52,178 nucleotides of DNA from a virus (IMGVR_UViG_3300031688_000025:1-52178); one strand, 5' to 3'; positions 12,335 through 36,410 are shown, counted from the stretch's first letter. Made by a program: numbers and translations. Notes: generated by a model not told the origin, from the sequence alone.

Positions 12335-12381
12335 CTCTATAAGGTACTATAATGGTTTCCCTCTATAAGGTACTATAATGG
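12335..12381 (-). promoter_or_regulatory. Tandem putative phage-RNAP late promoters (2 x 21 bp)
   Basis: CTCTATAAGGTACTATAATGG at 12335-12355 and 12361-12381. Minus strand reads ATTATAGTACCTTATA-GAG, pointing into terL. A 16-bp identical copy lies at 20843. Confidence 0.65.
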
Positions 12382-12499
12382 AGCTTAAGGGTTAATGGGA
12401 CTTAAAGGGTCTTTAGGGAGTGTATAGAATAACCCTGTGATATACGGTACCCTAATATAGCTTTGTACCCCCCTGATAGGTTCCTGCACTGTTCCTGTA

Positions 12500-12518
12500 G
12501 AGCCCTTCGGTCTCCTTG
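12500..12518 (+). promoter_or_regulatory. Putative virion-RNAP hairpin promoter 1
   Basis: GAGCCC-TTC-GGTCTC-CTTG (one stem mismatch); template strand has a C-GAA-G triloop. Confidence 0.55.
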
Positions 12519-12702
12519 TAGTATATCATAGAGATCCCTAGAGATCCCGAAGATATCTGCTAGTAACGGAGGACATGGGGAGTCCCTAGGGTAACATAGC
12601 CCTTAAGACCCTATAGACCCCGTAAGACCCTTTCAGTACCTGTGGATACCCTGCAGGTACACCTGTTTAATAGAGTCCCTTAGGGGGCATGGAGTGTGTG
12701 TA

Positions 12703-12981
12703 ATGTACGAAGTTCTTTCTGACCCTTGGGGTCTTGGTTTGTTTGTGTCAGTCATTGGGCTCCTTGGTAGCGTTGCTATCTTTGGTATCCTTGAGGCTGT
12801 TAGTGTTTGGTGCCGTCTCAAGAAACGTGGGGCTACACCAATCCGAATGATTCTGGATATGGAGCATTCTCGTGCAGTGTTTAAGTATAGACGTGCCCTG
12901 ATAATGTCATGGGTGTTTATGTCTATGTCTGTACTGTTTATTGTATCATTAGCTATGTCTATAGTAAGTGGTACTCTATAA
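12703..12981 (+). CDS. Early membrane protein with two predicted TM helices
   Basis: Two long hydrophobic segments; GGAG upstream of the ATG at 12703; sits between two hairpin motifs. Confidence 0.55.
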   Translation: MYEVLSDPWGLGLFVSVIGLLGSVAIFGILEAVSVWCRLKKRGATPIRMILDMEHSRAVFKYRRALIMSWVFMSMSVLFIVSLAMSIVSGTL

Positions 12982-12987
12982 ATCTAA

Positions 12988-13006
12988 GAGCCCTTCGGGC
13001 TCCTTG
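12988..13006 (+). promoter_or_regulatory. Putative virion-RNAP hairpin promoter 2
   Basis: Perfect GAGCCC-TTC-GGGCTC followed by CTTG; no U-tract. Confidence 0.65.
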
Positions 13007-13062
13007 AAGTGTCCTAAAGGGCATATACCTAGTGTAATTATAACCAAGTGGAGTAATATAGT

Positions 13063-13548
13063 ATGAAAGATTCGATTAAAATTCGAAGTGTAGTTGTACC
13101 TAACATCACGATTTCTGCGTGTAAGTTGCGCAGATCGTACAATGGTAAGTTTGGTCTACAGTACGGAGCCCACCTAACTGGTGACGGTCTAGCTGAGATA
13201 GGACTAAAGCAAGCTAACGATGGCGGGTACTGGTACTCTACCAATGCCAAGTATGGCAATATGGATGTCGATGTGCCACCTGTATCTATTCAAGATGCTG
13301 CTGGTAACGACATCGAAGATGATCTGGAGAATGGAGCTAAAGCTCACCTTCTCTTCGAGCTGCGTGACTACCCAGCAGGTGTCCGTAAAGATGGTACCAA
13401 GTTTGTTGCTGGTACCAATGCTCGTATCTCCGCTGTTCGTGCTCTGAGCTTCGATGTTAAGAAGTCTAAACAAGACGCACTAACTGCTGCTCTATTAGAG
13501 ATGGACATAGAGATGGAGTCAGTAGCACCAAATGGTGCAGTCTTCTAG
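13063..13548 (+). CDS. Early T7 gp2.5-like ssDNA-binding protein paralog
   Basis: Aligns by eye with 20122-20589 (FG.LQ, PV...D....I....NG.K........Y); acidic segment and terminal Phe; GGAG RBS. Confidence 0.6.
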   Translation: MKDSIKIRSVVVPNITISACKLRRSYNGKFGLQYGAHLTGDGLAEIGLKQANDGGYWYSTNAKYGNMDVDVPPVSIQDAAGNDIEDDLENGAKAHLLFELRDYPAGVRKDGTKFVAGTNARISAVRALSFDVKKSKQDALTAALLEMDIEMESVAPNGAVF

Positions 13549-13558
13549 CTTTCCCCCT

Positions 13559-13604
13559 GTAGGTGTATCGTTCTCTTAACTGAGTTCGGTGCACCTGCTT
13601 TTTT
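13559..13604 (+). terminator. Intrinsic terminator
   Basis: GTAGGTGTATCG...CGGTGCACCTGC stem followed by TTTTTT. Confidence 0.8.
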
Positions 13605-13610
13605 GTTGTA

Positions 13611-13629
13611 ACCGACAACACTACATGCA
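13611..13629 (+). promoter_or_regulatory. ACCGACA-Nx-TACATGCA motif, copy 1
   Basis: One of four copies, all just downstream of terminators. Confidence 0.55.
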
Positions 13630-13648
13630 AATTCCCACAGTTTCCTTG

Positions 13649-13689
13649 GGGACGCGGGGCTGACGCTAAGCAGCCTCGCTTCCTTTTTT
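13649..13689 (+). terminator. Intrinsic terminator
   Basis: GCGGGGCTG-loop-CAGCCTCGC followed by TTCCTTTTTT. Confidence 0.75.
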
Positions 13690-13695
13690 CTTACA

Positions 13696-13713
13696 ACCGA
13701 CACACTACATGCA
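13696..13713 (+). promoter_or_regulatory. ACCGACA-Nx-TACATGCA motif, copy 2
   Basis: ACCGACACACTACATGCA directly before the amidoligase operon. Confidence 0.55.
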
Positions 13714-13719
13714 AAAGCA

Positions 13720-14001
13720 ATGAGGTATCACATGCCAAAAGATTATGTCAGAGGCAAACCAATATTCATAGTGAACAAGACAACCCATAGTAGATTAGTA
13801 CCAGACGCTGAGTACACCGTCAATCAACTATCAATGATAACAGGGCTAACAAAACCTCAGGTGTTCAGCAGATGTAGGAAGAAAAGTACCATAGAGGACT
13901 CAGACCTATCAGCTAAGGTACGTAAGTACACACGCCCTTGGCCTGCTCTCCATAAAGACGAAGTGTTCTCTGCTTCTTACCTGTGCAAACCTATCATATA
14001 A
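13720..14001 (+). CDS. Small basic protein, possible HTH DNA-binding
   Basis: YTVNQLSMITGLTKPQVFSR resembles a helix-turn-helix; the real start may be MPKDY at 13732. Confidence 0.5.
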   Translation: MRYHMPKDYVRGKPIFIVNKTTHSRLVPDAEYTVNQLSMITGLTKPQVFSRCRKKSTIEDSDLSAKVRKYTRPWPALHKDEVFSASYLCKPII

Positions 14002-14018
14002 AACCAAGAGGAATTGTA

Positions 14019-14942
14019 ATGGCAGTTTCATTCGAAGTAACGTTAAGTAATATGACTGTACTTAAGTATGTGTCAAGAGCATGCTTCGCTCCAGTCAACC
14101 ATGTATTATCTAATGATCAGATGAGTAGGCACAATAGAGTTAACGCTATCAAGTACCTACCTTTCTTTCAAAGGTACTACTCTAACGAAGACTGTATGAA
14201 CCTTGAAGGCTACAAGATGACAAAAGAAATGTCATGGGAGTTAGCTACTAAGTGGTGGGATTATCTAATGACCCTACCTTTTATAACCGAGAGTATAAAG
14301 GATGACATACCCAGCACAACAGAGGGGTACAAGTCTGGTCTAAAGGTTACAACCGAGATGCCAGCCGACAGGATGATGCTCACGTTGTTCCTCCTTAGAG
14401 CCCCGCAGTACCAGCCTAACATCGTAAGGGTGTGGGATAGGGTGATGAAACAACATGACACTAACCCTGACACAGCACTAGTAACATCCTTCGCTATCAA
14501 TAGCCAACAAGCTAGTGATATAATAGACACCGAAAGCTTTAACCCTGAATGCTCACCTTTAGATTCAATATCCCCTTTGTATTCTTGTGAGAACACTATC
14601 GTATACCCTCAGTACTTTAGCATAATCGGTGCTAAGATAATGCTTAATAGATTACTGTGCGATGACTACGATAAAGAACTCTTCGGTGGTACACAAGATT
14701 ACTTCAGAGATAAGAGTCACTACAATCGGTACGCTACTACAGATCCCAAAGCTTTAGGTAGGTTCTTCTGTAAGAAACCCGCTTCATCATACCGGACAGG
14801 TAACCTTCAAGCCCGTGTAGCTAAGGATATACTAGGGCTAGAAGATGTAAGCAAGCATAGTAACCTAGACTATAGAAGACGACATGATCTGGCAATGGAC
14901 AAGGAACAAATAGCCCAACTCATAAAGTTAATTGAATCCTAA
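14019..14942 (+). CDS. Hypothetical protein
   Basis: Long ORF; GAGGA RBS precedes MAVSFEV. Confidence 0.7.
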   Translation: MAVSFEVTLSNMTVLKYVSRACFAPVNHVLSNDQMSRHNRVNAIKYLPFFQRYYSNEDCMNLEGYKMTKEMSWELATKWWDYLMTLPFITESIKDDIPSTTEGYKSGLKVTTEMPADRMMLTLFLLRAPQYQPNIVRVWDRVMKQHDTNPDTALVTSFAINSQQASDIIDTESFNPECSPLDSISPLYSCENTIVYPQYFSIIGAKIMLNRLLCDDYDKELFGGTQDYFRDKSHYNRYATTDPKALGRFFCKKPASSYRTGNLQARVAKDILGLEDVSKHSNLDYRRRHDLAMDKEQIAQLIKLIES

Positions 14943-14952
14943 GGGAGTTAAC

Positions 14953-15759
14953 ATGCTACATAAATCTAAATTGGAAAACGTAACAGTGGGTGCAGACCCT
15001 GAGGTATTCGTAGCGAATCATACCGGTACCATAACATCTGCTATAGGTAACGTAGGTGGTAGTAAAGACTTCCCTCGTCCAGTAACAGACGGTGGTGTTC
15101 AAGAAGACAATGTCCTAGCAGAATTTAACATCAACCCTGCCAGTAATAAGATAGAGTTCCTTTACAATATGAACTCTGTTATGTCATCTCTTAAAAACAT
15201 CTTAGAAAACAAAGACTTACAACCAGTCATCATTGCTAGTCACATGTTCGACAAAGGTGAGCTCGAAAGCTATGGCCCTATGGCTATGGAATTTGGTTGT
15301 AGTGCTGAGTGGAATGCTTGGAGTGGACGTGAAATGCCAAGACCTCAAGGCTCTAAGGTTAACTTAAGAACTGCAGGTGGTCACGTACATGTAGGCTATG
15401 ATGACCCCAACAAAGCAGACAGTATCGCTCTCGTTAAGATGCTAGACTTTGTACTAGGCTTACCATCTATCGAGGTAGACCCTGACAATCAGAGACGTAA
15501 GTTGTATGGTAAAGCAGGGTCAATGAGATACAAACCTTACGGTGTCGAGTATAGATCTCTCAGTAATTTCTGGTTAAGCTCTGATGATCTCATGTCTTGG
15601 GTGTACGACACTACCCTATGGGCCACTAGTAATCTAGGTATGTTACCTGAATTCCTAGAGTTAGTGGATAATAAAACTCTTAACAAAGTTATTAATAAGA
15701 GTGACAAACAATCTGCTCGTGCAATAATAGATGAGCTAGGTATACAGAGGATTGCTTAA
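14953..15759 (+). CDS. phiEco32-like COOH-NH2 ligase type 2
   Basis: GADPEVF, EDNVLAEFN, FGC, LRTAGGHVHVG, RYKPYGVEYRSLSNFW. Confidence 0.9.
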   Translation: MLHKSKLENVTVGADPEVFVANHTGTITSAIGNVGGSKDFPRPVTDGGVQEDNVLAEFNINPASNKIEFLYNMNSVMSSLKNILENKDLQPVIIASHMFDKGELESYGPMAMEFGCSAEWNAWSGREMPRPQGSKVNLRTAGGHVHVGYDDPNKADSIALVKMLDFVLGLPSIEVDPDNQRRKLYGKAGSMRYKPYGVEYRSLSNFWLSSDDLMSWVYDTTLWATSNLGMLPEFLELVDNKTLNKVINKSDKQSARAIIDELGIQRIA

Positions 15760-16454
15760 TGAACAATCCATTCAAAGATATTAACGCTAGAGATGTAAGC
15801 GGTACCTACTTAGACACTTACATTCAAATTAAAACAAGAGACGATGATGACTACTACCCTGCTCAGTTGATAAACGTCAACCAAGAGATGAATGGATGTA
15901 TACTAAGCTTTAAAAGATTCAATGAAGATGTCTTTGTTGTAGGTAAGGATGATCCTAAAGTTAAGTACAAGTTACAATGGCCTGAGTTAGGTATGGTTAA
16001 CGTGAGAGATCATGTGTGTTTTGTCAAGAGGATAGCACAACGTCAATGGAAGAAAGGGTTAAGACTATCTAACCTAGCTACCACTGTCTTTGACTCTACT
16101 ATACTTGAAGAGTTATCCTTTACTTCTGAAAGATACAGAGCAAGTAGCTTTAGTTCAGAAGACATACAACTACTGTATAGACCTGAGTACACACCCTACA
16201 TGCAAGCCATAGAATCTGTTAGCTCTGGCAGTAGTGTAGCTAGAGCAATCTCATCTAACTTTTGTATCTCTAATCGATTTGGTGTAATGACACCACTGTT
16301 ATACTATAAGAAGCATGCTGTTGGTATCGTAAAAGACAACAGTATATCTATAGTACCAGAGGTAAGCCACATCATTCCTATACTAAAGAGGGTTGTCCCA
16401 AATGGATTCCACAATTCAATCACTGTGGCAGCACAGCGAAGCAGTACCTTATAA
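15759..16454 (+). CDS. Hypothetical protein of the amidoligase cluster
   Basis: Coupled ORF (TAATG overlap). Confidence 0.7.
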   Translation: MNNPFKDINARDVSGTYLDTYIQIKTRDDDDYYPAQLINVNQEMNGCILSFKRFNEDVFVVGKDDPKVKYKLQWPELGMVNVRDHVCFVKRIAQRQWKKGLRLSNLATTVFDSTILEELSFTSERYRASSFSSEDIQLLYRPEYTPYMQAIESVSSGSSVARAISSNFCISNRFGVMTPLLYYKKHAVGIVKDNSISIVPEVSHIIPILKRVVPNGFHNSITVAAQRSSTL

Positions 16455-17325
16455 AAATGATAAGACTAAGACAGGTGCACTACTATCTAACACTAGGATA
16501 GGTGTCGAAGTTGAAGTAGAACAGATGCAAAGAATGATAAGCGTACCCGGATGGCGTTGCACTACTGACGGATCTCTCCGTGAGAATGGCGTTGAGTTTG
16601 TATTCAAAGGGCCTATTGGCGGTGCTGGTGCATGTCGTAGACTGGTAGCACTAGACAAAGTGTTGACATCTATACCTCAAAAGAACTTCTCAGCACGTAC
16701 CTCTGTGCATGTTCACGTAGACGTTAGAGATATGACTTGGAACGAACTTCTAAACCTAGTGATACTGTATGCTATGGTAGAACCTTACCTGTTCAGTGTC
16801 TGTGGTCAAGAGAGGGATGAGAGTATCTATTCCTTGTCTCTGTATCGTGGTCAAGACCAAGTGTCTAAGCTAATAAACCTAATAGAAAACGGGCCTGAGT
16901 TCTTAACGTCACGTAACTGGACTAAGTACTCTAGTGTAAACCTGTTGTCTGTCATTAACTTTGGTTCTTTAGAGTTCCGTGGTCACCGTGGTACATGTGA
17001 CAGCGGTACCCTTATCAATTGGATCAACCACCTCTTGTCTCTAAAGATGTGGGTTCAAATGTATGACAACAACCTGTCAGACTTACCTAAACTACTGAGT
17101 ACTAGCGGTCACATCGCAATGCTTAGAGAAGTCTTTGGTGATAAACTATTAGTGCCTAACATAAAAGCTGCTAATCGTGTACGTAATAAGATATATGAAG
17201 GTGTGTGGGTAGCTGAAGATATAATACACCACACTAAAATGAACACAACCCACCGTAATCTAATAGAATCATTACAAGGTGGCAACCAATTGGATAAGAT
17301 AAAGGATAAATTATGTGCGGTCTAG
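16393..17325 (+). CDS. Putative amidoligase (Amidoligase_2-like)
   Basis: IGVEVEVE, DGSL, GVEFV, SVHVHVD, KY..VN, SLEFR. Confidence 0.85.
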   Translation: MSQMDSTIQSLWQHSEAVPYKNDKTKTGALLSNTRIGVEVEVEQMQRMISVPGWRCTTDGSLRENGVEFVFKGPIGGAGACRRLVALDKVLTSIPQKNFSARTSVHVHVDVRDMTWNELLNLVILYAMVEPYLFSVCGQERDESIYSLSLYRGQDQVSKLINLIENGPEFLTSRNWTKYSSVNLLSVINFGSLEFRGHRGTCDSGTLINWINHLLSLKMWVQMYDNNLSDLPKLLSTSGHIAMLREVFGDKLLVPNIKAANRVRNKIYEGVWVAEDIIHHTKMNTTHRNLIESLQGGNQLDKIKDKLCAV

Positions 17326-20746: not shown

Positions 20747-20791
20747 AAGAGCCCTTCTCAACTTAGTAATAGGTTGGGAGGGGTTTCTTTT
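20747..20791 (+). terminator. Intrinsic terminator
   Basis: AAGAGCCCTTCTCAAC...GTTGGGAGGGGTTTCTTTT. Confidence 0.7.
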
Positions 20792-20838
20792 ATCTGTCTT
20801 ACAACGTAACTGAGAGGTGTTGTGTAGGATTCTAGGCA

Positions 20839-20858
20839 ATTAAGTACCTTATAGAGGG
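20839..20858 (+). promoter_or_regulatory. Putative phage-RNAP late promoter
   Basis: AGTACCTTATAGAGGG at 20843-20858 is the exact reverse complement of 12359-12374. Confidence 0.65.
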
Positions 20859-20878: not shown

Positions 20879-21331
20879 ATGTCTACTGAAGAGAAAGTCT
20901 TTACTCAAGAAGATGTAAACGATGGCAAGAAGAAGATACACCCTAACTCATTAGCTAATCTTAAACCAAGACATGATAAGCAACACATGGAAATGATGTG
21001 TAAGAAAGCTGATGAAGCTAGGTTAAAGAATGATCTAATGAAAGAACAAATGAAAGATGTTCTTAAATTAGTTAACAACCTATCTGATAGCCTAATGGAT
21101 TCAATCCCTAAAGGTTTAACTGTTATGAAACTAGCTATGATCAAAGCAATTGGTGCTGATGATATGGTTGAGGCTTCAAGGTTAGCATCTATAGTAGCTG
21201 AGTATGAGCAACCTAAACTTCAACGATCAGAAACAATCAACACTAACTTTGATTACACTGACTTAACAGATGAAGAACTGAAGGCAGAGATGGATAGGAT
21301 AAGTGGTAGCAGTAACGAAGCAGGGGCCTAG
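20879..21331 (+). CDS. Putative terminase small subunit
   Basis: HPNSLANLKP N-terminal motif, Y..PKL, LTDEEL tail; strong AGGAGG RBS; shares its upstream motif with terL. Confidence 0.6.
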   Translation: MSTEEKVFTQEDVNDGKKKIHPNSLANLKPRHDKQHMEMMCKKADEARLKNDLMKEQMKDVLKLVNNLSDSLMDSIPKGLTVMKLAMIKAIGADDMVEASRLASIVAEYEQPKLQRSETINTNFDYTDLTDEELKAEMDRISGSSNEAGA

Positions 21332-21344
21332 AGCCCCTCTTTTT
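21322..21344 (+). terminator. Intrinsic terminator
   Basis: AGGGGC-CTAGA-GCCCCT followed by CTTTTT. Confidence 0.7.
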
Positions 21345-21352
21345 ATTGCAAC

Positions 21353-21404
21353 ACCGACACCTGACTACATGCATTTTTCGGCAACCGACACCTGCTTACA
21401 TGCA
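21353..21404 (+). promoter_or_regulatory. ACCGACA-Nx-TACATGCA motif, copies 3 and 4 (tandem)
   Basis: ACCGACACCTGACTACATGCATTTTT (starts 21353) and ACCGACACCTGCTTACATGCATTTTT (starts 21384), upstream of the replication operon. Confidence 0.6.
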
Positions 21405-22093: not shown

Positions 22094-22255
22094 ATGTCCG
22101 GCAAGGGTTCAAGGCCACGGCCTATGAAAGAAAAAGAAGCGTACTCTAAATCATGGGATGCTATCTTCGGTAAGAAAGACAAACCTGAGGAAGCAGTAGA
22201 GCCCTTCGGGCTCCTAAAAGGTGAGGATAAAGATGCAGAAGATAAAGATAATTAA
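22094..22255 (+). CDS. Small phage protein (53 aa)
   Basis: Not in the ORF track; AGGAG RBS; MSGKGSRPRP...WDAIFGKK. Confidence 0.55.
   Translation: MSGKGSRPRPMKEKEAYSKSWDAIFGKKDKPEEAVEPFGLLKGEDKDAEDKDN
22199..22213 (+). promoter_or_regulatory. Third copy of the GAGCCC-TTC-GGGCTC hairpin
   Basis: Identical 15-mer to 12988-13002; lies inside a small ORF ahead of endo VII/RNR. Confidence 0.45.
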
Positions 22256-29426: not shown

Positions 29427-31523
29427 ATGGCTAACGCTATACATGCTGTAGCTCAGTACATAAGGAGCAATAGAGAAGGTGCCCGAGGTAGGAATCACTC
29501 GGGTATCGAACTCTTAAACAGGCATATGGATTACGGTATAGAATACGAAGAGCTTGTTATATGTGCAGTACAGGCAGCTCAAAGCTTATTCCTTAGATCC
29601 CGTAACGCTAGTAGTAGAAGCTTCAAGTTAACAGCAACATCAACATCAATAGGTTTATCTGTGGTCTCTAGGATAGGGATCAGGAACAGTACCTATACAG
29701 AGTTATTCTCAGTTGGTGATCTGTTTGTCGAAGCCTTACTACAACTTAAGTACCTTGAGATAGAAAGAGAGTACGAAGGTTACCGAGCACCGTATGTAAT
29801 ATTCTTAACAGAAAAGTGGGAAGACTTAGGTGAGATACCTCCAGAGTTTGATAAGGCTACACTGAGTGGTACTAGCTTTAAGAAATTCCCTAAGATAATT
29901 GGGTTAAGAAACCCGATAACCAAGAGGCCGTATATCAAACGTATGACCTCGGAGAGGGACTTTAACCAGTGCCTTGACCAACCCTTTGTGAAAGCTCTAG
30001 ACAAGCTGCAATCGTCTGCTTGGCACCTTAACGTAGACCTTGTTAAAGCTCTCAGAGATAACGTCACTAAGTTCTTAGATATGAAAGATAAGACAGACAA
30101 AGGTAGGTCTAAAAGAATAGAGATGAAGTTTATCTTAAACAAAGCAAGGGCTATAGGAGACGAAACTTTCTACCAAGCGGTAGAGTGTGACTACAGGGGG
30201 CGAGTGTACTACACTGAACCGTTCTTAAACTACCAAGGTTCTGACTTAGCCAAAGGTCTCTTTCAGTTTGGCGTAAGTAAACCTATGGATGACAAAGGAT
30301 TCTTTTGGTTATGTGTACACACTGCATGTTCTTACAACCAGTCGTATACGATAGAGGACTTAGATAAACAATCATGGTTAACAGAAGACTACAGGCATCA
30401 CTTAGCAGAAGAAGGGTTGGATACTATTTCAGTAGACAAAATGACGTTAAGGGACAGAGCACATTGGACAGTACACCACCAGAAGGAACTGATAAACGAT
30501 GCAACCTTGATGAACTTCAGGATGGAAGCGGAGAAACCAGTATCACTCCTAGCTTGCTGTCTTGATCTTAAAGGTTATGTAGAATCTGAAGGGGTATACG
30601 AGTCTTGTCTGCCTATACCTGTAGACGGAAGTAACAATGGATGGCAACACCTAGCTGCTATGTCTAAAGACAGTCAAGCAGGGGCGTTAGTCTCCATAGT
30701 ACCTCAGCTAATACAAAAAGATTTCTATGTAGAAGTAGCTAAGCGATTGATAGTTAGAATGCCTGAGTGGTTTGAGGGTAGGTCTATGCCAATGAAAGCA
30801 ATACGTAAAGGGATAGCCAAGCGTGGGTCTATGACTAGAGCTTACTCTGCAGGTCAACGTAAGATAGCAGAGAATATGTTCTATGATTGTAAGACTGAGG
30901 GATACAATAAGAAGTACAAGATAAGCAAAGATGACTGCGACAAGCTGTCTAAGAATCTAATTCTTGCTATCAATGATACTTGTGTTGGGCCCTTAAAGAC
31001 CATGAAGTTCTTACAAAAGATAACTGACTACTCACTAGAGAGTGGACAGACTTGTCTATCGTGGACTACACCATCAGGATTCCCTGTGTTGTATGAAGTA
31101 TGGAAGCAAAAGAACCTGACACTAAGGGGTACTATCAGGGGCTTAGGGCAGATAGGTCATAGCATCAAGGTGCCTGTGCTTACCAGAGAAAGTAAGCCTA
31201 TACCATGCCGTAGGTCTTTTGCATCTGGATGTTCACCTAACTTTGTACACTCAATGGATGCAGCACACATGGCTAAGGTAATCGAGTCATTCCCCGGAAG
31301 CTTTGGGGCAGTACATGATTCCTTCTCTACCCATGCGTGTGACGTTGAGAGGTTACTTGAGCATACTAAGTGGCAGTTTGCTATGATGTATAATGTAAGT
31401 AACTTCTTTAATCGCATAGAGTCTATGATCCTTGAGGATCGTACAGGTTACTGTGTTAAACAACCAGATATAGGTGATCTAAAAATAGAAGAAGTCATAA
31501 GCTCTGACTATTTCTTTTCTTAA
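29427..31523 (+). CDS. Single-subunit T7-like RNA polymerase (short, 698 aa)
   Basis: DYRGRVY, PVDGSNNGWQH, AKRGSMTRAY, WTTPSG, PNFVHSMDAAH, VHDSF. Confidence 0.95.
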   Translation: MANAIHAVAQYIRSNREGARGRNHSGIELLNRHMDYGIEYEELVICAVQAAQSLFLRSRNASSRSFKLTATSTSIGLSVVSRIGIRNSTYTELFSVGDLFVEALLQLKYLEIEREYEGYRAPYVIFLTEKWEDLGEIPPEFDKATLSGTSFKKFPKIIGLRNPITKRPYIKRMTSERDFNQCLDQPFVKALDKLQSSAWHLNVDLVKALRDNVTKFLDMKDKTDKGRSKRIEMKFILNKARAIGDETFYQAVECDYRGRVYYTEPFLNYQGSDLAKGLFQFGVSKPMDDKGFFWLCVHTACSYNQSYTIEDLDKQSWLTEDYRHHLAEEGLDTISVDKMTLRDRAHWTVHHQKELINDATLMNFRMEAEKPVSLLACCLDLKGYVESEGVYESCLPIPVDGSNNGWQHLAAMSKDSQAGALVSIVPQLIQKDFYVEVAKRLIVRMPEWFEGRSMPMKAIRKGIAKRGSMTRAYSAGQRKIAENMFYDCKTEGYNKKYKISKDDCDKLSKNLILAINDTCVGPLKTMKFLQKITDYSLESGQTCLSWTTPSGFPVLYEVWKQKNLTLRGTIRGLGQIGHSIKVPVLTRESKPIPCRRSFASGCSPNFVHSMDAAHMAKVIESFPGSFGAVHDSFSTHACDVERLLEHTKWQFAMMYNVSNFFNRIESMILEDRTGYCVKQPDIGDLKIEEVISSDYFFS

Positions 31524-31744: not shown

Positions 31745-32082
31745 TGGATAAAGTAAATGAGTTTCAAATTGTAGAAGACTTGGAGAACAAGGTAGTGGAC
31801 TGGGGTTACAGCAAAGGTATACTTACCAGTGCAGCACCAGATACTTTCCGTAGGATTAAACAACTTATTAAAACGGAAGAAGAGGTCATCGAGTTAGCTG
31901 ATGCTATACATGGTGACGATAGAACGGAGGCAATAGATGCCATTGGTGACATACTTGTTACTCTTATCATGCAGACACGTCTGTGGAATACTAATTTATA
32001 CGAGTGCCTCGATGAAGCTTTCGAGGTTATCAGTAAACGAACTGGACGAATGGTTGACGGCATATTCGTTAAGGATGAATAA
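31744..32082 (+). CDS. MazG-like nucleotide pyrophosphohydrolase
   Basis: K..EE..EL..AI.......DAIGD..V.L, I..R.G.MV.G.FVK. Confidence 0.85.
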   Translation: MDKVNEFQIVEDLENKVVDWGYSKGILTSAAPDTFRRIKQLIKTEEEVIELADAIHGDDRTEAIDAIGDILVTLIMQTRLWNTNLYECLDEAFEVISKRTGRMVDGIFVKDE

Positions 32083-32084
32083 CA

Positions 32085-32360
32085 ATGACTAACATGAAGA
32101 AAGAATCGTACAACATTATGCGGCACGAAGGGATAGATGATATGGAGTATGTAGAGGAGCTAGGTCTTAACCCTGCCCTTGCGTACACACCAGCTATCAA
32201 CGAAGCTATCATTGAGCATGTCTCTGCTGAGAACTACGCAGGCTATATAGCCAAGGGGGTTGACCATGATAAAGCAAATGAAATGGCTAATGCTCTAGCT
32301 AAGAAAGCAAGGGCTACAGTCAGCCATGCTAACCCTATCCTAAAGGATAAAGGTTATTAA
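32085..32360 (+). CDS. Hypothetical protein
   Basis: Last ORF of the + arm. Confidence 0.6.
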   Translation: MTNMKKESYNIMRHEGIDDMEYVEELGLNPALAYTPAINEAIIEHVSAENYAGYIAKGVDHDKANEMANALAKKARATVSHANPILKDKGY

Positions 32361-32425
32361 AAAAGGGCCCCAATTAAGGGGCCCAAAGTACTACTATATG
32401 GGGGCCCTAACGGGCTCCCTTTTTT
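32359..32425. terminator. Back-to-back terminators of the two converging arms
   Basis: AAAAAA-GGGCCCC-AATTAA-GGGGCCC (minus strand) and GGGGGCCC-TAAC-GGGCTCCC-TTTTTT (plus strand). Confidence 0.85.
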
Positions 32426-35400
32426 ATTGTAATGTTGTTTTAAACTTAGGATCATCCATAGCAAACTGATAGATACCTCTTGCCTTACCTTCTCCGCTAG
32501 CTGCGGAAACGTACTGGTAGTGTGCATCTTTCATATGCTTAGCTACTCCTCTTCTCCTTTCAGCAGAATCTCTATCAAGCCTTGCAAGATCCTTTACAAC
32601 TGAACCAAACTTCCACTTCATTAAGAAAGACATAGACTCTGATAAGGTAGCATAGTTTCTGTAAGGGTTAGGTGTCTCTATCTCAAGACCTTTGTACTGA
32701 TGTGGCTTTAACCTAGCAGCTAAACGTTCAGCTTCTTCCTTAAGTGGCCCGTCAACATCTAAGTAATTAAGTTGATTCCTAACAAACTCAACAGTATTGT
32801 TGTGTTCATCTTCCATTATCAACTCTTTACCTGCCTGTTCCCCTCGTCTTTTAAACTCCTTAAAGCCATGGTGGATGTTACCTGTAACTACATCCTTGAT
32901 ATCCTTAAGAACAGCAGAGTTATTAGTTTGATCAAACCAATCATCATTTAACATCTGTTCTACAATATCACCTTGACTTAAGTCTGTAACAACAGCGTCA
33001 TAAATAGGAGATAGCCAAGGCATATTATCACCTTGCGTAAGCTTAGTCCAGTTCTTACCAGATGCCAACATAATCATGTTCATTGCATCAAAAGACTGAG
33101 CAAGTGTAGCTAAGGAAGATCCCCTTGCTTTACCGCCTAAGATACCACCCTGTGCAGCATAAGGGGTTAGCTGTGGGTTAGCAGAAGTAGTTTGAATCCT
33201 TTGATCAACTGACTTAAGCTGTTTCCTTAGTGCATCAGCTCTGACTAAGTTACCTTCAGCTTCAGCTCTTGAAATACTATCTTGTATTCCTTTGTTTACC
33301 TTACGGTTACCTGCTATAGTTTTACTGTCAAGCCTCTTACCATTTTCAAATGGAGTTATCATACCCCTCTTGAAACTCTCAGTGTCGTATACTTTCTCCA
33401 TACCACCTAACGTAGTCTTACCGCCACTTGGGCTTGGGAAAGTAACCATTCTGTTAAACATAGTAGACGCATCAACAGAATCCTTAAGCAAAGCAGCAAA
33501 CTCTACAAGCTCAGGCCCTAAGGTAGCTTCAACTGCAACACCTCTTATATCGTTTAGTAACATAGCAGCGTTGTTAAGTCCACCGGGGAATGACTCAGCC
33601 GCTTGCTTAAGAGTAGGATCACTAAGTAAAGTATCCCAGACAGAACCTATTAAGTTATCCATCTCTTGACCATAAGCAAAGGTCATTAAAGGTTTCTTAA
33701 GGAAGTCTGCCTTGTTCTTTAAAGACAACTGAAAGAGTTCTCTTACATTATCTAACATAGTTTCGTCATAGCTGTACTTATCCATGAACGCTTTGTCAGT
33801 AAGCATGTAACCGCTGAACTCACTGTCAAGTAAAGTCTCTAAGTTATTACTGAGGGTCTTTCTTATATCACCTTCGTAAGCTTCAAAGCCTTCTATGTCA
33901 GAATAAGCTCCAAGTATCTTACTAGCATTCTCAGCACGGAACAAACCAACCCGATACAACTTCTCTTTAAGACCTAGTATGCTGAACATAGTAGCTAATC
34001 CATTAGAGATGCCATCGATTTCCATATAGTTAACAGCAGATCTAAAAGACTTACCTGCTTTCATAGCTGCATCATAGTTAGCTATATCAATAACAGCATC
34101 TATCATTTGTATAGCATGCTTGTGTGCTTTCTTGTTATTAGCCAAACCTTGTATGAAGTCTGCAACCTCAGGGTCAGAAGATAAAGCTGCTGGTACTCTA
34201 GTAGGTAGCTTGTCTACACCTGAAACACCATTACTGTTTACCATAATCTGAGACAAAGCTAATCGTGCTGGCTTGTCATCGTAAGCCTGAAGGGCCTCGT
34301 TGATCTTTTTGCCAATCCTAACTAGTCTCTTATGGGCCTCAGATTGTGTACGTATGTTACCCGCAGCTTGCTCTATAGCATCAGCCCTTACAAGACCACC
34401 TCCGTCATAGAACAAAGCAGACATAGTAGCCAACCAGTTACTCTCTTCTCTGCTACGGCTGTTAGGAATGACCTCGATCATCTTACCACTGCCAATAATA
34501 TTACGAACAAGATGGTTGTTAACTGGTGATAGCGAAGAGTGTGGTGTTAACCTTTGAGTAACTCTTTGTTTAAAGTATGTAAAGTAAAAAGGTTTATTGT
34601 CATACACAGATAAGCTCGTAAGAACCTCAAGGGCTTTGTTAGCATGCATGTAATACTGTTGCTGTTGGAACTCTGGAGTTCTAAACTTAGCTTCTTGCAA
34701 CTTAGATATCTCTATATCTTGCTGTAGTTTCTCTATTAAAAACACAGTACGATAATAAGCAGGACTAGAAGGTTCAACAAGCAGAGCTTTATCTAGCTTA
34801 GCCTGAAGTACAAGACCCCTAGCATTTTCATTTTCTGCTATCTTTGCAATAGAAGCTTTCCTTTCATCACCTATGTCAAACATATCAAGCAAAGGGTTAC
34901 CATTAGCACCCATAGCAGCCTGACCCATAGCAGCAGAGCCTAACAAGATTGCAATCTTAGATCGTCTAGGTTCAAAGTAATTAGGCACTTGACTGTAACT
35001 AAACATAGCATCATCGGCGCTAATAGACTTAGGGTTAGGTACAGATCCTGTGCTAGACTTAGTATAAGCAGATCCCTCATACATAGGTTGACCTGTAGCA
35101 GGGGGAGATAGAAGTGGCTTCATCCTTGGATTAAAAGGTTTATACTTCCTAACATCTCTTGAGAGTACCTGAAATCCTAGCTTAGTCAAAGACAAAGTAG
35201 GTGGTAAAATATTACCAGCTTCATCAATACCGCCCGGAGAATGAGTAACTATATCCGGGAAACTCATTTGATAATCAGCAAGAAAAATCTTACCAATCAT
35301 TTCAAAAGCCTCAGGTGTTAAGTTCTGGTAATCAGCTACGTAAGAATCTGTTTCCAAACCTTCCATCTCAGACTTAGCTCTACGAAAATCCTTAAAGATA

Positions 35401-36410
35401 GCCTCACCCACACCTCTAACCGATGTGTCAAACTTAGAGTCTCCGGCTTGATAACCTTGCAACTCATCTATGTCTGCTTGAGCAGCAGAACTTAGAGGTG
35501 AACCATCGTCATTGTTAGCTTGAGACATGCTTAGAAGCCAAGGCTCTATCACTGCCATTTGTATTAGGTCAAACCGTGGGTCTACTTTAGCTGTCCTTGC
35601 GTAAGATATTTCCTCAAAGTCTGCCTCTCCGTCTGCATAAGCCTGAGCTGTGTCACGTTCGAACTTAGCATCTAGCTTACCAACCCCAAGGATCTTAGGG
35701 TGCATCACTAAGTTAGACATGCTTAACTTTAAATCAGGATTGTCCTTGAAAACATTAGGGGCTACATCATCCTGAGTCTGCATCTGTTCGATAGCCTCAG
35801 CAGTAACTTCCTCATCAGGGTTAAGCTTAAGGGTATCCTTAATGCTTAGACCAATAACATCCCTGTCCTGAGAGTCCCTTGTTTTAAACCTAACTCTTTC
35901 TGTAAGCTCATGCCCTAAGACATTTGCTGCATTAGAGAAGCTAGTGGCGATACCCATTCTTTCTAATGGGCCGGGGACTCTTTCCTGTTCCCGTTGTTGA
36001 ACCTCAAGGGGTGTCTCAGCTTGATCAACAAAGACATTGCTGCCTTCCTCAACCACAGAGCCAACACCCTGAGAGCCTACGTCAGCTTGCGCAGGTAGTA
36101 CAGTGGCTTCTGCCAGACCTAAGTCTGAAACAGGAGTCTCTAGTTGAGACCCCTCAGCAACCATATCAGTTTCATCTATGATACCAAGTTGTATCAAGTC
36201 TTCTCGGGTATACTCACCTTCGCCTTGTACTCCTTGAGGCCCTTCCAATGGGCCGAACTGTTCCTCTATTCCTTGAAGAGCCTCGTTACCACCTTGAGCT
36301 TGTTGAGAAAGCTCTTCCTGTAACCTGAGAAGCGACTCTTGTTTACTTGCTTCTGTTTCAGCAGCCGTAGGTTGAGCACCTATCACTGCGTTAGCTGACG
36401 TAATCGCCAT
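32424..36410 (-). CDS. Putative virion-encapsidated single-subunit RNA polymerase (N4 vRNAP-like)
   Basis: Collinear motifs QRVTQRL..SPVNNHLVR, EIDGISNG (D799), KKPLMTFAYG (K905/Y913), FPSPSG, QSFDA, IYDA (D1138); no Cys; last gene of the ejection module. Confidence 0.8.
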   Translation of the reverse strand: MAITSANAVIGAQPTAAETEASKQESLLRLQEELSQQAQGGNEALQGIEEQFGPLEGPQGVQGEGEYTREDLIQLGIIDETDMVAEGSQLETPVSDLGLAEATVLPAQADVGSQGVGSVVEEGSNVFVDQAETPLEVQQREQERVPGPLERMGIATSFSNAANVLGHELTERVRFKTRDSQDRDVIGLSIKDTLKLNPDEEVTAEAIEQMQTQDDVAPNVFKDNPDLKLSMSNLVMHPKILGVGKLDAKFERDTAQAYADGEADFEEISYARTAKVDPRFDLIQMAVIEPWLLSMSQANNDDGSPLSSAAQADIDELQGYQAGDSKFDTSVRGVGEAIFKDFRRAKSEMEGLETDSYVADYQNLTPEAFEMIGKIFLADYQMSFPDIVTHSPGGIDEAGNILPPTLSLTKLGFQVLSRDVRKYKPFNPRMKPLLSPPATGQPMYEGSAYTKSSTGSVPNPKSISADDAMFSYSQVPNYFEPRRSKIAILLGSAAMGQAAMGANGNPLLDMFDIGDERKASIAKIAENENARGLVLQAKLDKALLVEPSSPAYYRTVFLIEKLQQDIEISKLQEAKFRTPEFQQQQYYMHANKALEVLTSLSVYDNKPFYFTYFKQRVTQRLTPHSSLSPVNNHLVRNIIGSGKMIEVIPNSRSREESNWLATMSALFYDGGGLVRADAIEQAAGNIRTQSEAHKRLVRIGKKINEALQAYDDKPARLALSQIMVNSNGVSGVDKLPTRVPAALSSDPEVADFIQGLANNKKAHKHAIQMIDAVIDIANYDAAMKAGKSFRSAVNYMEIDGISNGLATMFSILGLKEKLYRVGLFRAENASKILGAYSDIEGFEAYEGDIRKTLSNNLETLLDSEFSGYMLTDKAFMDKYSYDETMLDNVRELFQLSLKNKADFLKKPLMTFAYGQEMDNLIGSVWDTLLSDPTLKQAAESFPGGLNNAAMLLNDIRGVAVEATLGPELVEFAALLKDSVDASTMFNRMVTFPSPSGGKTTLGGMEKVYDTESFKRGMITPFENGKRLDSKTIAGNRKVNKGIQDSISRAEAEGNLVRADALRKQLKSVDQRIQTTSANPQLTPYAAQGGILGGKARGSSLATLAQSFDAMNMIMLASGKNWTKLTQGDNMPWLSPIYDAVVTDLSQGDIVEQMLNDDWFDQTNNSAVLKDIKDVVTGNIHHGFKEFKRRGEQAGKELIMEDEHNNTVEFVRNQLNYLDVDGPLKEEAERLAARLKPHQYKGLEIETPNPYRNYATLSESMSFLMKWKFGSVVKDLARLDRDSAERRRGVAKHMKDAHYQYVSAASGEGKARGIYQFAMDDPKFKTTLQ

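Follow-up and report, generated by a model that had tools for sequence, protein, structure and literature searches.

Analysis of a 52,178-nucleotide (nt) marine viral sequence (the window, which is the whole virus record and about 92% complete) is best explained, in our modestly confident opinion, by an N4-like podovirus in which a packaged, compact RNA polymerase (RNAP) would initiate transcription at DNA hairpins, followed by a T7-like RNAP that would transcribe the late arm. The window represents a near-complete uncultured marine short-tailed phage (podovirus) and its map resembles that of N4, with two arms diverging from one junction. This junction (12042-12693) is non-coding and divides a late arm of about 32 kb, transcribed leftward with terL first and the gene of a 1328-amino-acid (aa) polymerase last, from an early/replication arm oriented rightward. 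The original prediction had called for two single-subunit RNAPs, which proved to be real on the basis of Pfam, PHROG and PDB matches, invariant motifs and fold, as well as for three motif classes and a set of terminators, all of which were recovered at the expected places by exact matches and scans in the window. The features are as follows.

10404..12041, minus strand: terL (terminase large subunit), first late-arm gene (PHROG 2, E 5.5e-29)
12052..12337, minus strand: predicted late leader RNA, from promoter +1 to the terL ribosome-binding site (RNA-library contigs)
12335..12374, minus strand: tandem T7-type late promoter pair (CCATTATAGTACCTTATAGAGRGA, 26 nt apart), about 300 nt upstream of terL
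12500..12514, plus strand: hairpin A, GAGCCC TTC GGTCTC (5/6 pairs, centre 12507), upstream of the first early ORF 12694-12981
12694..13548, plus strand: two early ORFs forming one unit, with products of 95 aa and 161 aa
12988..13002, plus strand: hairpin B, GAGCCC TTC GGGCTC (centre 12995), 61 nt upstream of ORF 13063-13548
13561..13609, plus strand: terminator at the end of the early unit (stem of 12 pairs including G-T pairs, loop of 16 nt, T6)
13611..13713, plus strand: two ACCGACA..TACATGCA elements heading the amidoligase operon, 13611-13629 and 13696-13713, separated by a terminator
13654-13679, plus strand: terminator between these two elements (scan)
20749..20796, plus strand: terminator 3' of the gp2.5-like SSB gene (scan)
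20843..20856, plus strand: third T7-type promoter copy, 23 nt upstream of ORF 20879-21331, with a terminator on either side
21322..21348, plus strand: terminator 3' of ORF 20879-21331 (scan)
21353..21404, plus strand: pair of ACCGACA..TACATGCA elements heading the replication operon, spaced 31 nt apart
22199..22213, plus strand: hairpin C, GAGCCC TTC GGGCTC (centre 22206), 21 nt upstream of ATG 22234
29427..31523, plus strand: T7-type single-subunit RNAP, 698 aa, last large gene of the replication operon (Pfam, PHROG, PDB)
32424..36410, minus strand: compact virion-type single-subunit RNAP, 1328 aa, last late-arm gene (profile, fold, motifs)
36414..43579, minus strand: two large late proteins, 1604 aa (SNase domain) and 778 aa, adjoining the polymerase gene upstream

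In the related genome G001, the genes from terL to the 1328-aa polymerase also form one unbroken arm. The large late proteins matched Pfam SNase (4e-5) and PHROG 6958 'virion structural protein' (8.1e-16) and, judging by gene position alone, the 1604-aa and 778-aa products are candidate internal or ejected virion proteins. In the other arm, the 161-aa early protein shows good conservation (it matches 31 database proteins at E <= 0.001, and aligning 20 of these gives 32 invariant columns), and no family could be assigned to it despite this conservation. Family, profile and fold searches gave no support to the earlier labels of 'SSB' for this ORF (13063-13548) and of 'TerS' for ORF 20879-21331. 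The amidoligase operon begins at ORF 13720 and the replication operon at ORF 21438, the latter with the order EndoVII-RNR-DNAP-exonuclease-SegE-primase/helicase-T7-like RNAP. Terminator-like sites are enriched in the window (24 versus 11.4 +/- 3.3) and the three strongest on the plus strand (13654-13679, 20749-20786 and 21322-21338) lie at block borders. The terminator of the early unit was read by eye and is absent from the scan because its loop is too long for a search that admits only loops of 3-8 nt. Among the scan sites listed, no strong terminator lies between hairpin C and the T7-like RNAP gene.

The ORF of the 698-aa polymerase abuts that of the primase-helicase. It matched Pfam RNA_pol (E 8.6e-50), PHROG 414 (E 1.8e-102) and the T7 RNAP chains of the PDB (E 1.4e-32), and its translation shows motifs A, B and C. 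The compact polymerase gene begins 3 nt past the stop of the upstream 1604-aa ORF and its product matched PHROG 2206 'virion RNA polymerase' (E 8.7e-7). An alignment of 64 sequences revealed an invariant TGR...R, the D-G of motif A, the K of motif B and the D of motif C. An AF2 model of residues 529-1328 (pLDDT 86.4) gave N4 mini-vRNAP (2po4) as the best Foldseek match (E 4.9e-9), while VIA-align returned Z scores of 22.9 to T7 RNAP, 20.9 to mitochondrial RNAP and 19.3 to 2po4, so that in the modelled structure the N4 enzyme is not clearly nearer than the T7 and mitochondrial enzymes. N4 chains were not detected from the compact RNAP by phmmer or profile search. The compact enzyme belongs to a large, uncultured family with members of about 1100-1350 aa. 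Among 80 IMG/VR loci carrying it, four were left out with less than 1.2 kb of downstream sequence, and in all of the 76 testable related contigs (76/76) a T7-like RNAP gene lies convergent just downstream. Its place within the structural operon, on gene position alone, suggests that the 1328-aa RNAP may be packaged.

The 14-mer AGTACCTTATAGAG occurs exactly three times in the window (12335-12348 and 12361-12374 on the minus strand, 20843-20856 on the plus strand). It is the only 14-mer with at least three copies outside two coding tandem-repeat tracts, and none of 30 dinucleotide shuffles yielded any such 14-mer; when up to three mismatches were allowed, it was not enriched (13 versus 9.6 expected). 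The proximal promoter of the tandem pair has a predicted +1 at 12337, which would give a terL leader of 296 nt. The core AGTACCTTATAG, which we take to resemble the T7 promoter consensus (TATAG at the start site), was found before terL in G001 (one copy), G003 and G004 (two each, in tandem) and G006 (one, with GGTACC), and relatives with RNAP identity as low as 62% keep it there, frequently as a tandem. The third copy is invariant at the matching site in L003, L005, L006, L009 and G001 while its flanks diverge, and a variant of the late promoter precedes the G003 ortholog of ORF 20879. In G009 and G010, whose T7-like RNAP is about 41% identical, the motif drifts to AAGTYCCTTATAGGGA, and a T7-type promoter is directed into the early arm. 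Since AGTACCTTATAG stays constant where the compact RNAP is only 26-31% identical, the motif tracks the T7-like RNAP. These comparisons support AGTACCTTATAG as a putative late-arm promoter of the T7-like RNAP, as had been proposed, given that its positions are conserved and that it diverges in step with that enzyme.

RNA-library contigs from two studies cover the leader (X17, 12056-12327; X18, 12052-12315; X20, 12056-12317) and have their ends 10-22 nt inward of the predicted +1 on one side and at the ribosome-binding site of terL on the other, with the reservation that libraries seen as contigs show neither strand nor true ends. In X13, which spans the whole stretch and may hold DNA, the depth of the leader region is 98 versus 13-37 elsewhere. 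The 5' GAGAGAGAGAA of the leader RNA pairs with its 3' UUCUUCUCUCUC (z -1.92).

ACCGACA followed by TACATGCA occurs four times on the plus strand (13611/13622, 13696/13706, 21353/21366 and 21384/21397). ACCGACA alone is present six times versus 2.58 expected (six was reached in 5/100 shuffles) and TACATGCA alone seven times versus 2.53 (seven in 2/100). A conserved hairpin, TGTG-AGGA-CACA, with a ribosome-binding site in its loop, follows the replication-operon pair. The original prediction had read these elements as the start of a middle stage of transcription. A distinct stage of this kind is not established, as ACCGACA is restricted to a subclade with RNAP identity of at least 77% and its second half-motif is not conserved. 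A serious contender, to which we give somewhat less than even chances, is that ACCGACA is an operator or origin iteron bound by a phage DNA-binding protein gating the two middle operons, with transcription supplied by upstream read-through or from hairpin C. This would agree with its occurrence as three to four direct repeats within 45-70 bp in L005, L009 and G001, with an ATGCA/TGCA half placed at 1, 6, 7 or 9 nt, where promoters of single-subunit RNAPs would keep a fixed geometry, with the G003/G004 group, which is devoid of the element and uses hairpins and T7-type variants at its operon heads, and with an X17 RNA-library contig (21097-21472) bridging the terminator and both replication-operon elements. 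On the other hand, all copies are in sense orientation, 20-100 nt from the first gene, and the amidoligase operon of the window and of G006 follows a strong terminator with no other promoter-like sequence upstream. As neither a hairpin nor a full late promoter precedes this operon, another reading of ACCGACA, or read-through, is needed.

An unlikely alternative follows the logic of phiKMV and T7, the host RNAP transcribing the early/replication arm and the T7-like RNAP the late genes, while the 1328-aa RNAP would not be the early transcriptase and would fulfil other tasks, e.g. drawing DNA into the cell, priming or some late role. Host promoters would then have been missed by the consensus scan, perhaps in the T-run/TTGYAA/ACCGACA regions, and indeed the operon-head ACCGACA elements are preceded by T-runs and TTGYAA-like hexamers. 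phiKMV likewise has its RNAP gene where the DNA-metabolism block ends. Moreover, Roseobacter phage CRP-7 keeps the layout and a T7-like RNAP without the compact RNAP, so such phages can start infection otherwise, and a non-standard host promoter is conceivable. However, sigma-70-like sites are not enriched in the window (42 versus 44.8, for a consensus that may not be the host's), none of the scan sites listed precedes the early genes, be it in the junction or in early intergenic DNA, and the sequences 17 nt past the TTGYAA hexamers, read by eye, are not -10-like and their spacing varies among copies. Neither the invariance of the catalytic residues of the compact RNAP in 64 sequences nor its strict pairing with the T7-like RNAP favours this alternative, which also leaves conserved, strand-biased hairpins without explanation.

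Taken as a class, triloop hairpins are no more frequent in the window than in shuffles (56 versus 63.3 +/- 8.6), nor are perfect CTNCG hairpins enriched (2 versus 1.03 expected; 17/60 shuffles reach 2), and the weight therefore lies on the near-identity of the copies and on related genomes. Hairpins A, B and C have flanks in common. Imperfect orthologs of hairpin A are found at the matching site in G001 and G006, and the G001 ortholog of hairpin B has a different stem (CCAGCC/GGCTGG). Hairpin C, a copy that the original prediction did not name, is contained in a small ORF. It heads the operon running from EndoVII to the T7-like RNAP gene and is present at the syntenic site in seven genomes with four different stems and TTC or TCC loops. 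In four clade genomes, all perfect CTNCG triloop hairpins are on the early-arm strand (13/13) and 12/13 lie in the junction or early arm. G003 has five tandem copies where its early arm begins and G007 a hairpin within a 280-bp terminal repeat at the junction; in G009 and G010, which carry the compact RNAP, no CTNCG hairpin was found in 3 kb of early arm. Across 11 aligned hairpins the heptamer CCTNCGG is invariant, both sides change in 4/6 stem pairs and 96.7% of cells are paired versus 75.5% in shuffles, figures that are inflated by selection because the finding scan demands pairing. Loops across relatives are TTC, TCC or TGC, which corresponds to GNA on the template strand. The N4 promoter has a GC-rich heptamer centred at -11 with inverted-repeat flanks and a template loop of -10G, -11G and -12A (PMC4496689). 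Judged by sequence, the hairpins thus share the N4 early-promoter design, in line with the original prediction, and their position, strand and core are kept across relatives. They are not trailed by a T-run, and a ribosome-binding site and start codon lie within 20-60 nt of each. That they act in RNA or bind protein instead, whether in processing or stabilising transcripts, in pausing or terminating a single-subunit RNAP, or as operators, is improbable: RNA structure would fit conserved, covarying stems equally well, an X18 contig (12886-13359) passes through hairpin B and hairpin C is intragenic, but the invariant part is the loop-proximal heptamer with TNC loops only, so that the template strand forms C-GNA-G, a DNA mini-hairpin of high stability, whereas UNC triloops are, to our knowledge, not special in RNA, T-runs are missing, start codons are close and the five copies of G003 are reminiscent of promoter arrays. 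The DNA mini-hairpin is a topic of PMC13037366.

In the favoured N4-like scheme, the 1328-aa RNAP would be made last within the structural operon, packaged, and enter the cell with the DNA. It would initiate about 11 nt downstream of the N4-type hairpins, where the GC-rich heptamer CC-TNC-GG centred on the 3-nt loop lets the template strand form the mini-hairpin; two hairpins would drive the two early genes and the third the operon ending in the T7-like RNAP gene. The 698-aa RNAP would then read T7-type promoters (ATTATAGTACCTTATAG|AGRGA), the tandem pair serving the whole late arm and another copy ORF 20879-21331, while ACCGACA repeats may be a subclade-specific control or promoter element. 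Of the cascade first proposed, the two RNAPs, the late promoter and the hairpins are supported, whereas the distinct middle stage is not supported in the form proposed: with a hairpin upstream of the EndoVII to T7-like RNAP genes, the virion-type enzyme could reach the second RNAP gene directly and a two-stage cascade would be enough. Two single-subunit RNAPs with matching N4-style hairpins and T7-style promoters suggest that the host polymerase may be dispensable, and most or all phage gene expression may proceed without it.

N4 and the Schitoviridae use a virion RNAP (gp50), RNAPII (gp15/gp16) and, for late genes, host RNAP with N4SSB; the earlier statement that N4 late genes depend on host RNAP is correct according to PMC4496689. 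Shared with N4 are the leftward late and rightward early/replication arms, the late arm closing with the polymerase gene where the two converge, a single-subunit RNAP of the virion type with the ExDGxxxG motif (named in PMC10654107), hairpin promoters in which the GC-rich heptamer is centred on a loop of 3 nt that reads GNA on the template, and a second small T7-family RNAP (698 aa here versus 673 aa for N4 gp15 + gp16). In contrast, the virion-type enzyme is 1328 aa instead of about 3500 aa, genomes are 52-60 kb instead of at least 70 kb, and the second RNAP is one chain encoded at the replication-operon end and far nearer T7 RNAP (PHROG 414, 345 bits) than N4 RNAPII (98, 90 bits). The late arm here has T7-type promoters, and N4 middle promoters (AT-rich, -7 to +2) are unlike either motif in the window. 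A precedent for N4-type polymerases in small genomes is the 48.9-kb Pseudoalteromonas phage vB_PunP_Y3 ('Poorviridae'), which is reported to have a distant N4 virion RNAP homolog by PSI-BLAST (PMC11654794); the text of that paper never uses the term 'T7-like', and no BLAST-level link to the compact family was found, tblastn of three of its members against 50,697 GenBank phage records giving no match. With T7 and phiKMV (Autographiviridae), the phage has in common an RNAP of the T7 family that contains motifs A, B and C, and conserved promoters of about 20 nt with a TATAG end before structural genes. It differs by genes on both strands, the virion-type RNAP, no sigma-70-like early promoters in the consensus scan and, relative to T7, an RNAP about 185 N-terminal residues shorter (698 versus 883 aa). 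CRP-7 (MK613349), the nearest cultured phage, provides the best match of the T7-like RNAP (32% identity over 100% of its length) and the same order of DNAP, exonuclease, primase and RNAP, followed by an arm in convergent orientation that encodes very large proteins; in its paper the RNAP is mentioned and the phage is described as a new group (PMC6918029). All 58,106 bases of CRP-7 gave no match to the compact-polymerase profile and no perfect CTNCG hairpin, and the window motifs are absent from its intergenic positions. Finally, phiKZ-type phages and Thermus phage P23-45 transcribe early genes with a virion RNAP and later ones with another phage RNAP (PMC7618050, 10.1101/2022.12.01.518664). 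They resemble the scheme proposed here in that the programme begins with a packaged polymerase, through which a second polymerase, absent from the virion, is expressed, so that host RNAP is unneeded. The phiKZ-type enzymes are multi-subunit and that of P23-45 is two-barrel and fused to the tape measure, whereas the two RNAPs here are both single-subunit enzymes of the T7/N4 family, encoded by a podovirus with a small genome.

The window (a whole IMG/VR virus record of 52,178 bases, rated 92% complete, 42.4% G+C) gave no Rfam match at gathering thresholds and no gene in a tRNA scan. Its protein-coding genes are arranged as follows:

12041 down to 1, minus strand: block with terL, portal and further structural genes
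10404-12041, minus strand: terL
8028-10286, minus strand: portal
12042-12693: non-coding junction of 652 bp between the diverging late and early/replication arms
12694-32360, plus strand: plus-strand block
29427-31523, plus strand: T7-like RNA polymerase (RNAP), 698 aa
52178 down to 32424, minus strand: second minus-strand block
32424-36410, minus strand: compact enzyme, 1328 aa

In G001, a related genome of 54,067 bases (96% complete), both minus-strand blocks form one continuous arm of about 32 kb running from terL to the 1328-aa ORF, so that the window represents a permuted version of a genome that has a single late arm and a single early/replication arm. The plus arm starts with two small early ORFs, followed by an amidoligase, glutamine amidotransferase, ATP-grasp and gamma-glutamyl cyclotransferase cluster, a gp2.5-like SSB and ORF 20879-21331. 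EndoVII, ribonucleotide reductase, DNA polymerase A, 5'-3' exonuclease, a SegE-like GIY-YIG endonuclease and primase-helicase come next, and the arm ends with the 698-aa RNA polymerase and MazG. The SegE-like protein (27252-27791), a homing endonuclease, is encoded between the exonuclease and primase-helicase genes. The operon at 13983-20060 encodes a phiEco32-type COOH-NH2 ligase, an amidoligase, a class-II glutamine amidotransferase, an ATP-grasp protein and a gamma-glutamyl cyclotransferase; this cluster is absent from the related genome G003, and a gamma-glutamyl amide operon of phage phiRIO-1 is mentioned by Hardies and co-workers (PMC4819975). The junction is dense with short CCCTWWRGG and CTATAG-type repeats. 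Another relative, G007, has 280-bp direct terminal repeats located in the same junction (L140/L141), which suggests that the physical genome ends lie there. Two coding tandem repeats, one with a 21-nt period (2941-3912, within the 923-aa ORF 1279-4050) and one with a 15-nt period (42577-42696, within the 778-aa ORF 41243-43579), suggest that tail or internal proteins contain repetitive segments rich in Ala, Ser and Thr.

The original prediction held that the virus encodes two single-subunit RNAPs, and this was borne out by family matches, catalytic motifs and the fold of the compact enzyme. The product of ORF 29427-31523 matched Pfam RNA_pol (PF00940) with an E-value of 8.6e-50 (170.3 bits for a cut-off of 22), PHROG 414 with 1.8e-102 and T7 RNAP chains in the PDB with 1.4e-32, and its translation contains motifs A, B and C as DGSNNG, RGSMTRAYSAG and VHDSF. 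Matches to the two N4 RNAPII families of PHROG were much weaker (1e-27 and 2e-25). Judged from its sequence, this protein is a T7-type enzyme.

The compact enzyme matched a single family, PHROG 2206 'virion RNA polymerase' (E-value 8.7e-7, residues 753-914), and nothing in Pfam, PDB sequences or GenBank phages. Its last 800 residues were used in a HMMER scan of 1.84 billion representative proteins, which recovered 164 proteins at E-values of at most 0.001 (96 at 1e-10 or less), mostly 1100-1350 aa long and aligned through their C-terminal part. These 800 residues and 63 of the proteins were assembled into a 64-row alignment, in which R92, R108, D271-G272, K377 and D610 are invariant. They correspond to the TGR...R motif, the Asp-Gly of motif A, the Lys of motif B and the Asp of motif C that define single-subunit RNAPs. 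The family consensus reads TGR, ExDGxTNG, FLKxxxMTFGYGQE and PIYDAF, and the enzyme of the window reads EIDGISNG, KKPLMTFAYGQ and IYDAV. The 64-sequence profile had no match among PDB sequences, nor did tblastn of three family members (P0001, P0014 and P0044) find any in GenBank phages. An AF2 model built from the alignment (pLDDT 86.4, pTM 0.85) gave 72 Foldseek matches at E-values of at most 0.001, with N4 mini-vRNAP, mitochondrial and T7 RNAP chains among those listed. We consider it settled that the compact enzyme has the right-hand fold and the catalytic residues of a single-subunit RNAP.

The two structural comparisons place its kinship differently, and the family searches add only the weak PHROG 2206 match. 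Foldseek ranked N4 mini-vRNAP (2po4) first with an E-value of 4.9e-9, nearly tied with yeast mitochondrial RNAP and closely followed by T7 RNAP, whereas VIA-align ranked T7 RNAP (1h38) first (Z 22.9, 449 residues, rmsd 3.8), ahead of yeast mitochondrial RNAP (Z 20.9) and N4 mini-vRNAP (2po4; Z 19.3), the last with the longest aligned stretch (516-562 residues). Assignment of the N-terminal 540 residues to RPOL_N was rejected, as the Atlas lead (0.82) was under the trust level. N4 vRNAP is a giant protein with large N- and C-terminal domains, in contrast to the 1328 aa of the compact enzyme; N4-type vRNAPs, the hallmark of the Schitoviridae, measure 2,842-3,820 aa in reference genomes, and a 2023 survey defined them by an ExDGxxxG motif and dropped proteins shorter than 2,500 aa (PMC10654107). 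This motif is present in the compact enzyme as EIDGISNG.

The compact gene is the last of the late operon, right after those of the 1604-aa and 778-aa late proteins, and from this position its product is probably packaged in the virion. The 1604-aa protein (36414-41228) contains a staphylococcal-nuclease domain at residues 234-324. The compact enzymes of the window and G001 (32424-36410 and 48111-52097, the latter L049:8111-12097) are collinear over their full length and 30-31% identical, the lowest value among orthologs aligning over most of their length, while most other proteins are 72-92% identical between the two genomes; of the two adjacent proteins, the 1604-aa one shares 55% identity and the 778-aa one 35% across part of its length. 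Such a low identity means that a probably injected protein has either evolved very fast or undergone allele exchange, and points to a strong diversifying pressure on it.

Relatives of the compact enzyme were analyzed in 80 IMG/VR loci, the best 80 of 113 confirmed. A T7-like RNAP gene is found in convergent orientation within about 1-3 kb downstream of the compact gene in 76 of them, and the remaining four, with 572-1127 bases of downstream sequence, could not be judged. Across these loci, identity to the window falls from 88% to 36% for the T7-like RNAP and from 98% to 21% for the compact enzyme. The polymerase pair is a hallmark of the clade. The closest cultured phage by T7-like RNAP, Roseobacter phage CRP-7 (32% identity), shares its gene order with the window. 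Its whole genome gave no match to the compact-enzyme profile, and its gp33, encoded at the position of the compact gene, yielded no alignment with the family profile in hhalign (probability 0.1). The T7-like RNAP is the sole RNAP mentioned in the CRP-7 paper (PMC6918029).

Apart from the two coding repeat tracts, AGTACCTTATAGAG is the sole 14-mer with three copies in the window, and 30 shuffles gave no such 14-mer. This candidate late promoter occurs at:

12335-12348 and 12361-12374, minus strand: two junction copies at a 26-nt spacing, roughly 300 nt before terL, reading CCATTATAGTACCTTATAGAGRGA
20843-20856, plus strand: third copy, 23 nt before ORF 20879-21331 (which has terminators on both sides), reading ATTAAGTACCTTATAGAGGGC

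With TATAG and subsequent purines at its end, the block resembles T7-group promoters. The core is exact before the ORF 20879 ortholog in the related loci L003, L005, L006 and L009 and in G001, within diverged intergenic DNA. Before terL, it is present in one copy in G001 and in G006 (GGTACC in the latter) and in two copies in G003 and G004 (47 and 51 nt apart), whose T7-like RNAPs are merely 62-66% identical to that of the window; G003 also has variants before the ORF 20879 ortholog and one further early-arm gene. The predicted presence of a repeated motif before terL and ORF 20879-21331 stands, and the motif is conserved at these positions in relatives. In G009 and G010, where the T7-like RNAP is about 41% identical, it has drifted to CTCTAAGTYCCTTATAGGGA. 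The junctions of these two genomes (L138, L137) have CTCTAAGTYCCTTATAGGGA in both directions, one copy facing terL and one the early arm. Since the motif drifts slowly with the T7-like RNAP and stays constant where the compact enzyme is 26-31% identical, we assign it to the T7-like RNAP; sequence, position and co-divergence are all consistent with a promoter read by this enzyme. Near-copies at gene borders of the amidoligase operon (window 16443-16456, start site TATAAAA; G001 13305-13318, TATAGTA) may be weak internal promoters.

Four metatranscriptome runs contain window DNA, as contigs that do not indicate strand or true ends and whose uncovered parts are uninformative. In three of the four, from two studies, a contig extends from 12052/12056 to 12315/12327, which is from the terL ribosome-binding site to just inside the predicted +1 (12337). 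In the fourth, run X13, the contig over this stretch had a depth of 98 (13-37 for the other contigs of the run), and in run X20, one of the three, the contig had a loose end at 12056. The contig ends are a weak hint in favour of the predicted late start site. In the predicted fold of the 288-nt leader, marginally better than shuffles (z -1.92), the first 12 nt (GAGAGAGAGAAU) pair with a pyrimidine run right before the ribosome-binding site. The stretch 12052-12337 (minus strand) may correspond to a discrete, abundant leader or small RNA.

Three copies of a hairpin unit of about 20 nt, WAGAGCCCTTCGGKCTCCT, were found in the window:

12500-12514, plus strand: hairpin A
12988-13002, plus strand: hairpin B
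22199-22213, plus strand: hairpin C

The window is not enriched in triloop hairpins in general (56 versus 63.3 ± 8.6 in shuffles), and perfect CTNCG hairpins number 2 for 1.03 expected. Comparison across genomes was more informative. The window (G000), G001, G003 and G004 together have 13 perfect CTNCG hairpins, every one of them on the early-arm strand; 12 are in the junction or early arm, the exception being in a late gene of G004. Five of the G003 copies are not independent, as they are repeated in tandem as 73-bp units right where the early arm begins, and CRP-7 has no perfect CTNCG hairpin. Hairpin C is syntenic upstream of EndoVII in the window, L003, L006, L008, L009, L015 and G001, with four kinds of 6-bp stem (GAGCCC, GGAGCC, AAGGCC and GGGGCC) and TTC or TCC loops; L005, of the same group, has no hairpin C. 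An alignment of 11 instances from positions A, B and C shows no variation in the heptamer CCTNCGG, and four of the six stem pairs change on both sides. Paired cells amount to 96.7% (75.5% in shuffles and 18-63% in slid registers). These figures are overstated since the instances were picked by a scan requiring pairing, the shared positions and strand bias being independent of it.

The loops read TTC, TCC or TGC, corresponding to GAA, GGA or GCA on the template strand within a C...G closing pair. Each hairpin is followed by 4-6 A/T-rich bases, then by purines 11-15 nt from the loop centre, and by a ribosome-binding site and start codon within 20-60 nt. N4 early promoters consist of a GC-rich heptamer centred at -11 and flanking inverted repeats, in which the template loop has -10G, -11G and -12A and stem identity is free to vary (PMC4496689). 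The hairpins of the window clade have the same design, and TCC is the loop of N4 itself. The 280-bp terminal repeat of G007 contains such a hairpin, which would fit early promoters placed on the DNA end that enters first. On the basis of their design and conservation, we infer that the hairpins may be the promoters of the compact enzyme. G009 and G010 encode the compact enzyme and have no GNA-type/CTNCG hairpin in 3 kb of early arm; together with their T7-type promoter facing the early arm, this argues against the generality of the hairpin system.

The third motif comprises four ACCGACA copies, which follow terminators where the amidoligase and replication operons begin. It is confined to relatives with at least 77% RNAP identity (L003, L005, L006, L008, L009, G001 and G006) and was not found in intergenic DNA of G003, G004 and CRP-7. 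ACCGACA alone is constant, in most cases with a T-run 4-9 nt ahead of it. As second half, the window, L003 and G006 have TACATGCA, L005, L006, L009 and one G001 site have CTTGCA, and L008 has a directly abutting AATGCA; two G001 sites have none. The halves are separated by 1, 6, 7 or 9 nt, and L005, L009 and G001 have three or four direct ACCGACA repeats within one intergenic region. Such loose geometry, unlike that of single-subunit RNAP promoters or of a -35/-10 pair, fits better with a site bound by a phage protein, whether or not this protein recruits a polymerase. The element may alternatively act as a promoter of the amidoligase operon, since the window has no other candidate there; in G003, which lacks ACCGACA, hairpins or T7-type variants are placed after the terminators instead. 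A sigma-70 reading of these sites (TTGYAA with a -10 box 17 nt on) was rejected by eye because the -10 is unlike TATAAT and shifts between copies, and a sigma-70 scan of the window gave no enrichment. A TGTG-AGGA-CACA hairpin (21424-21435), whose loop shows the ribosome-binding site of ORF 21438, is kept in the close relatives L005, L006, L009 and G001 despite variable surrounding DNA. All three motif classes predicted to map onto functional blocks are present, and ACCGACA is limited to one subclade. We therefore treat the two promoter classes as the putative conserved system and this element as a subclade-specific addition.

Two protein labels of the original prediction found no support. ORF 20879-21331, proposed as TerS, matched no Pfam or PHROG family, and its Atlas lead was DUF5681 on 34% of one cluster (score 0.90). 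ORF 13063-13548 (161 aa, the second early protein), labelled as an SSB, matched no family, its profile found nothing in the PDB, BLASTP against the gp2.5-like ORF 20122-20589 gave an E-value of 0.26, and a single-sequence AF2 model reached a pLDDT of 36. The protein is well conserved, with 31 database relatives at E-values of at most 0.001, 20 of which were aligned and gave 32 invariant columns. What is left in favour of the SSB label is its acidic C-terminal tail, whose last residue is Phe, as in T7 gp2.5.

We consider a two-polymerase cascade, in which packaging, the start sites, the pairing of enzymes with promoters and the freedom from host RNAP are presumed, to be the most economical reading of these data. 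The compact enzyme, made last and probably packaged, would start at the hairpins; in this way it would express the two early genes and, by way of hairpin C, the replication operon with the T7-like RNAP gene at its end. The terminator scan listed no strong terminator between hairpin C and this gene. The T7-like RNAP would then read the late arm from the tandem promoters, yielding the compact enzyme for the next round. It is conceivable, if somewhat short of an even chance, that this large, so far uncultured clade of 50-60-kb marine podoviruses carries out its whole transcription without host RNAP, by means of a packaged, fast-evolving compact RNAP of about 1200-1300 aa acting on template-strand C-GNA-G DNA hairpins and a minimal T7-type RNAP acting on T7-type promoters of the late arm. 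If true, this would connect the N4 and T7 strategies as a missing link and be the smallest known self-sufficient phage transcription system. Should the model hold, the compact hairpin-specific polymerase with its promoter and the short T7-type enzyme with its defined promoter would both be useful as tools, the single-subunit family, too, would have given rise to a combination of virion and late phage polymerases, and screens for N4-like viruses that discard matches below 2,500 aa would overlook this group.

We found no description of the polymerase pair or the compact family in the open-access full-text literature, and an earlier mention in subscription journals or supplements is possible. We found three nearest precedents: the N4 polymerase is described as a domain embedded in an internal virion protein (Hardies and co-workers, PMC4819975), a distant N4-type polymerase is reported for a Pseudoalteromonas phage of 48.9 kb (PMC11654794), and virion and non-virion RNAPs of other polymerase families occur together in phiKZ-type phages and P23-45 (PMC7618050, 10.1101/2022.12.01.518664).

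N4 has been regarded as unique among phage types in injecting a single-subunit RNA polymerase. Its virion polymerase has about 3,500 residues, and the compact enzyme, at one third of this size, has the same fold, catalytic motifs and gene position. As in the cascade proposed here, the second polymerase of N4 is expressed from an early promoter. As the original prediction had stated, late RNAs of N4 are made by host RNAP, together with N4SSB (PMC4496689), whereas in the scheme proposed here the late arm would be read by the T7-like RNAP. The Autographiviridae have all genes on one strand, in contrast to the two convergent/divergent arms of the window. In T7 and phiKMV, host RNAP begins the transcription programme, whereas the programme proposed for the window would start with the compact enzyme.
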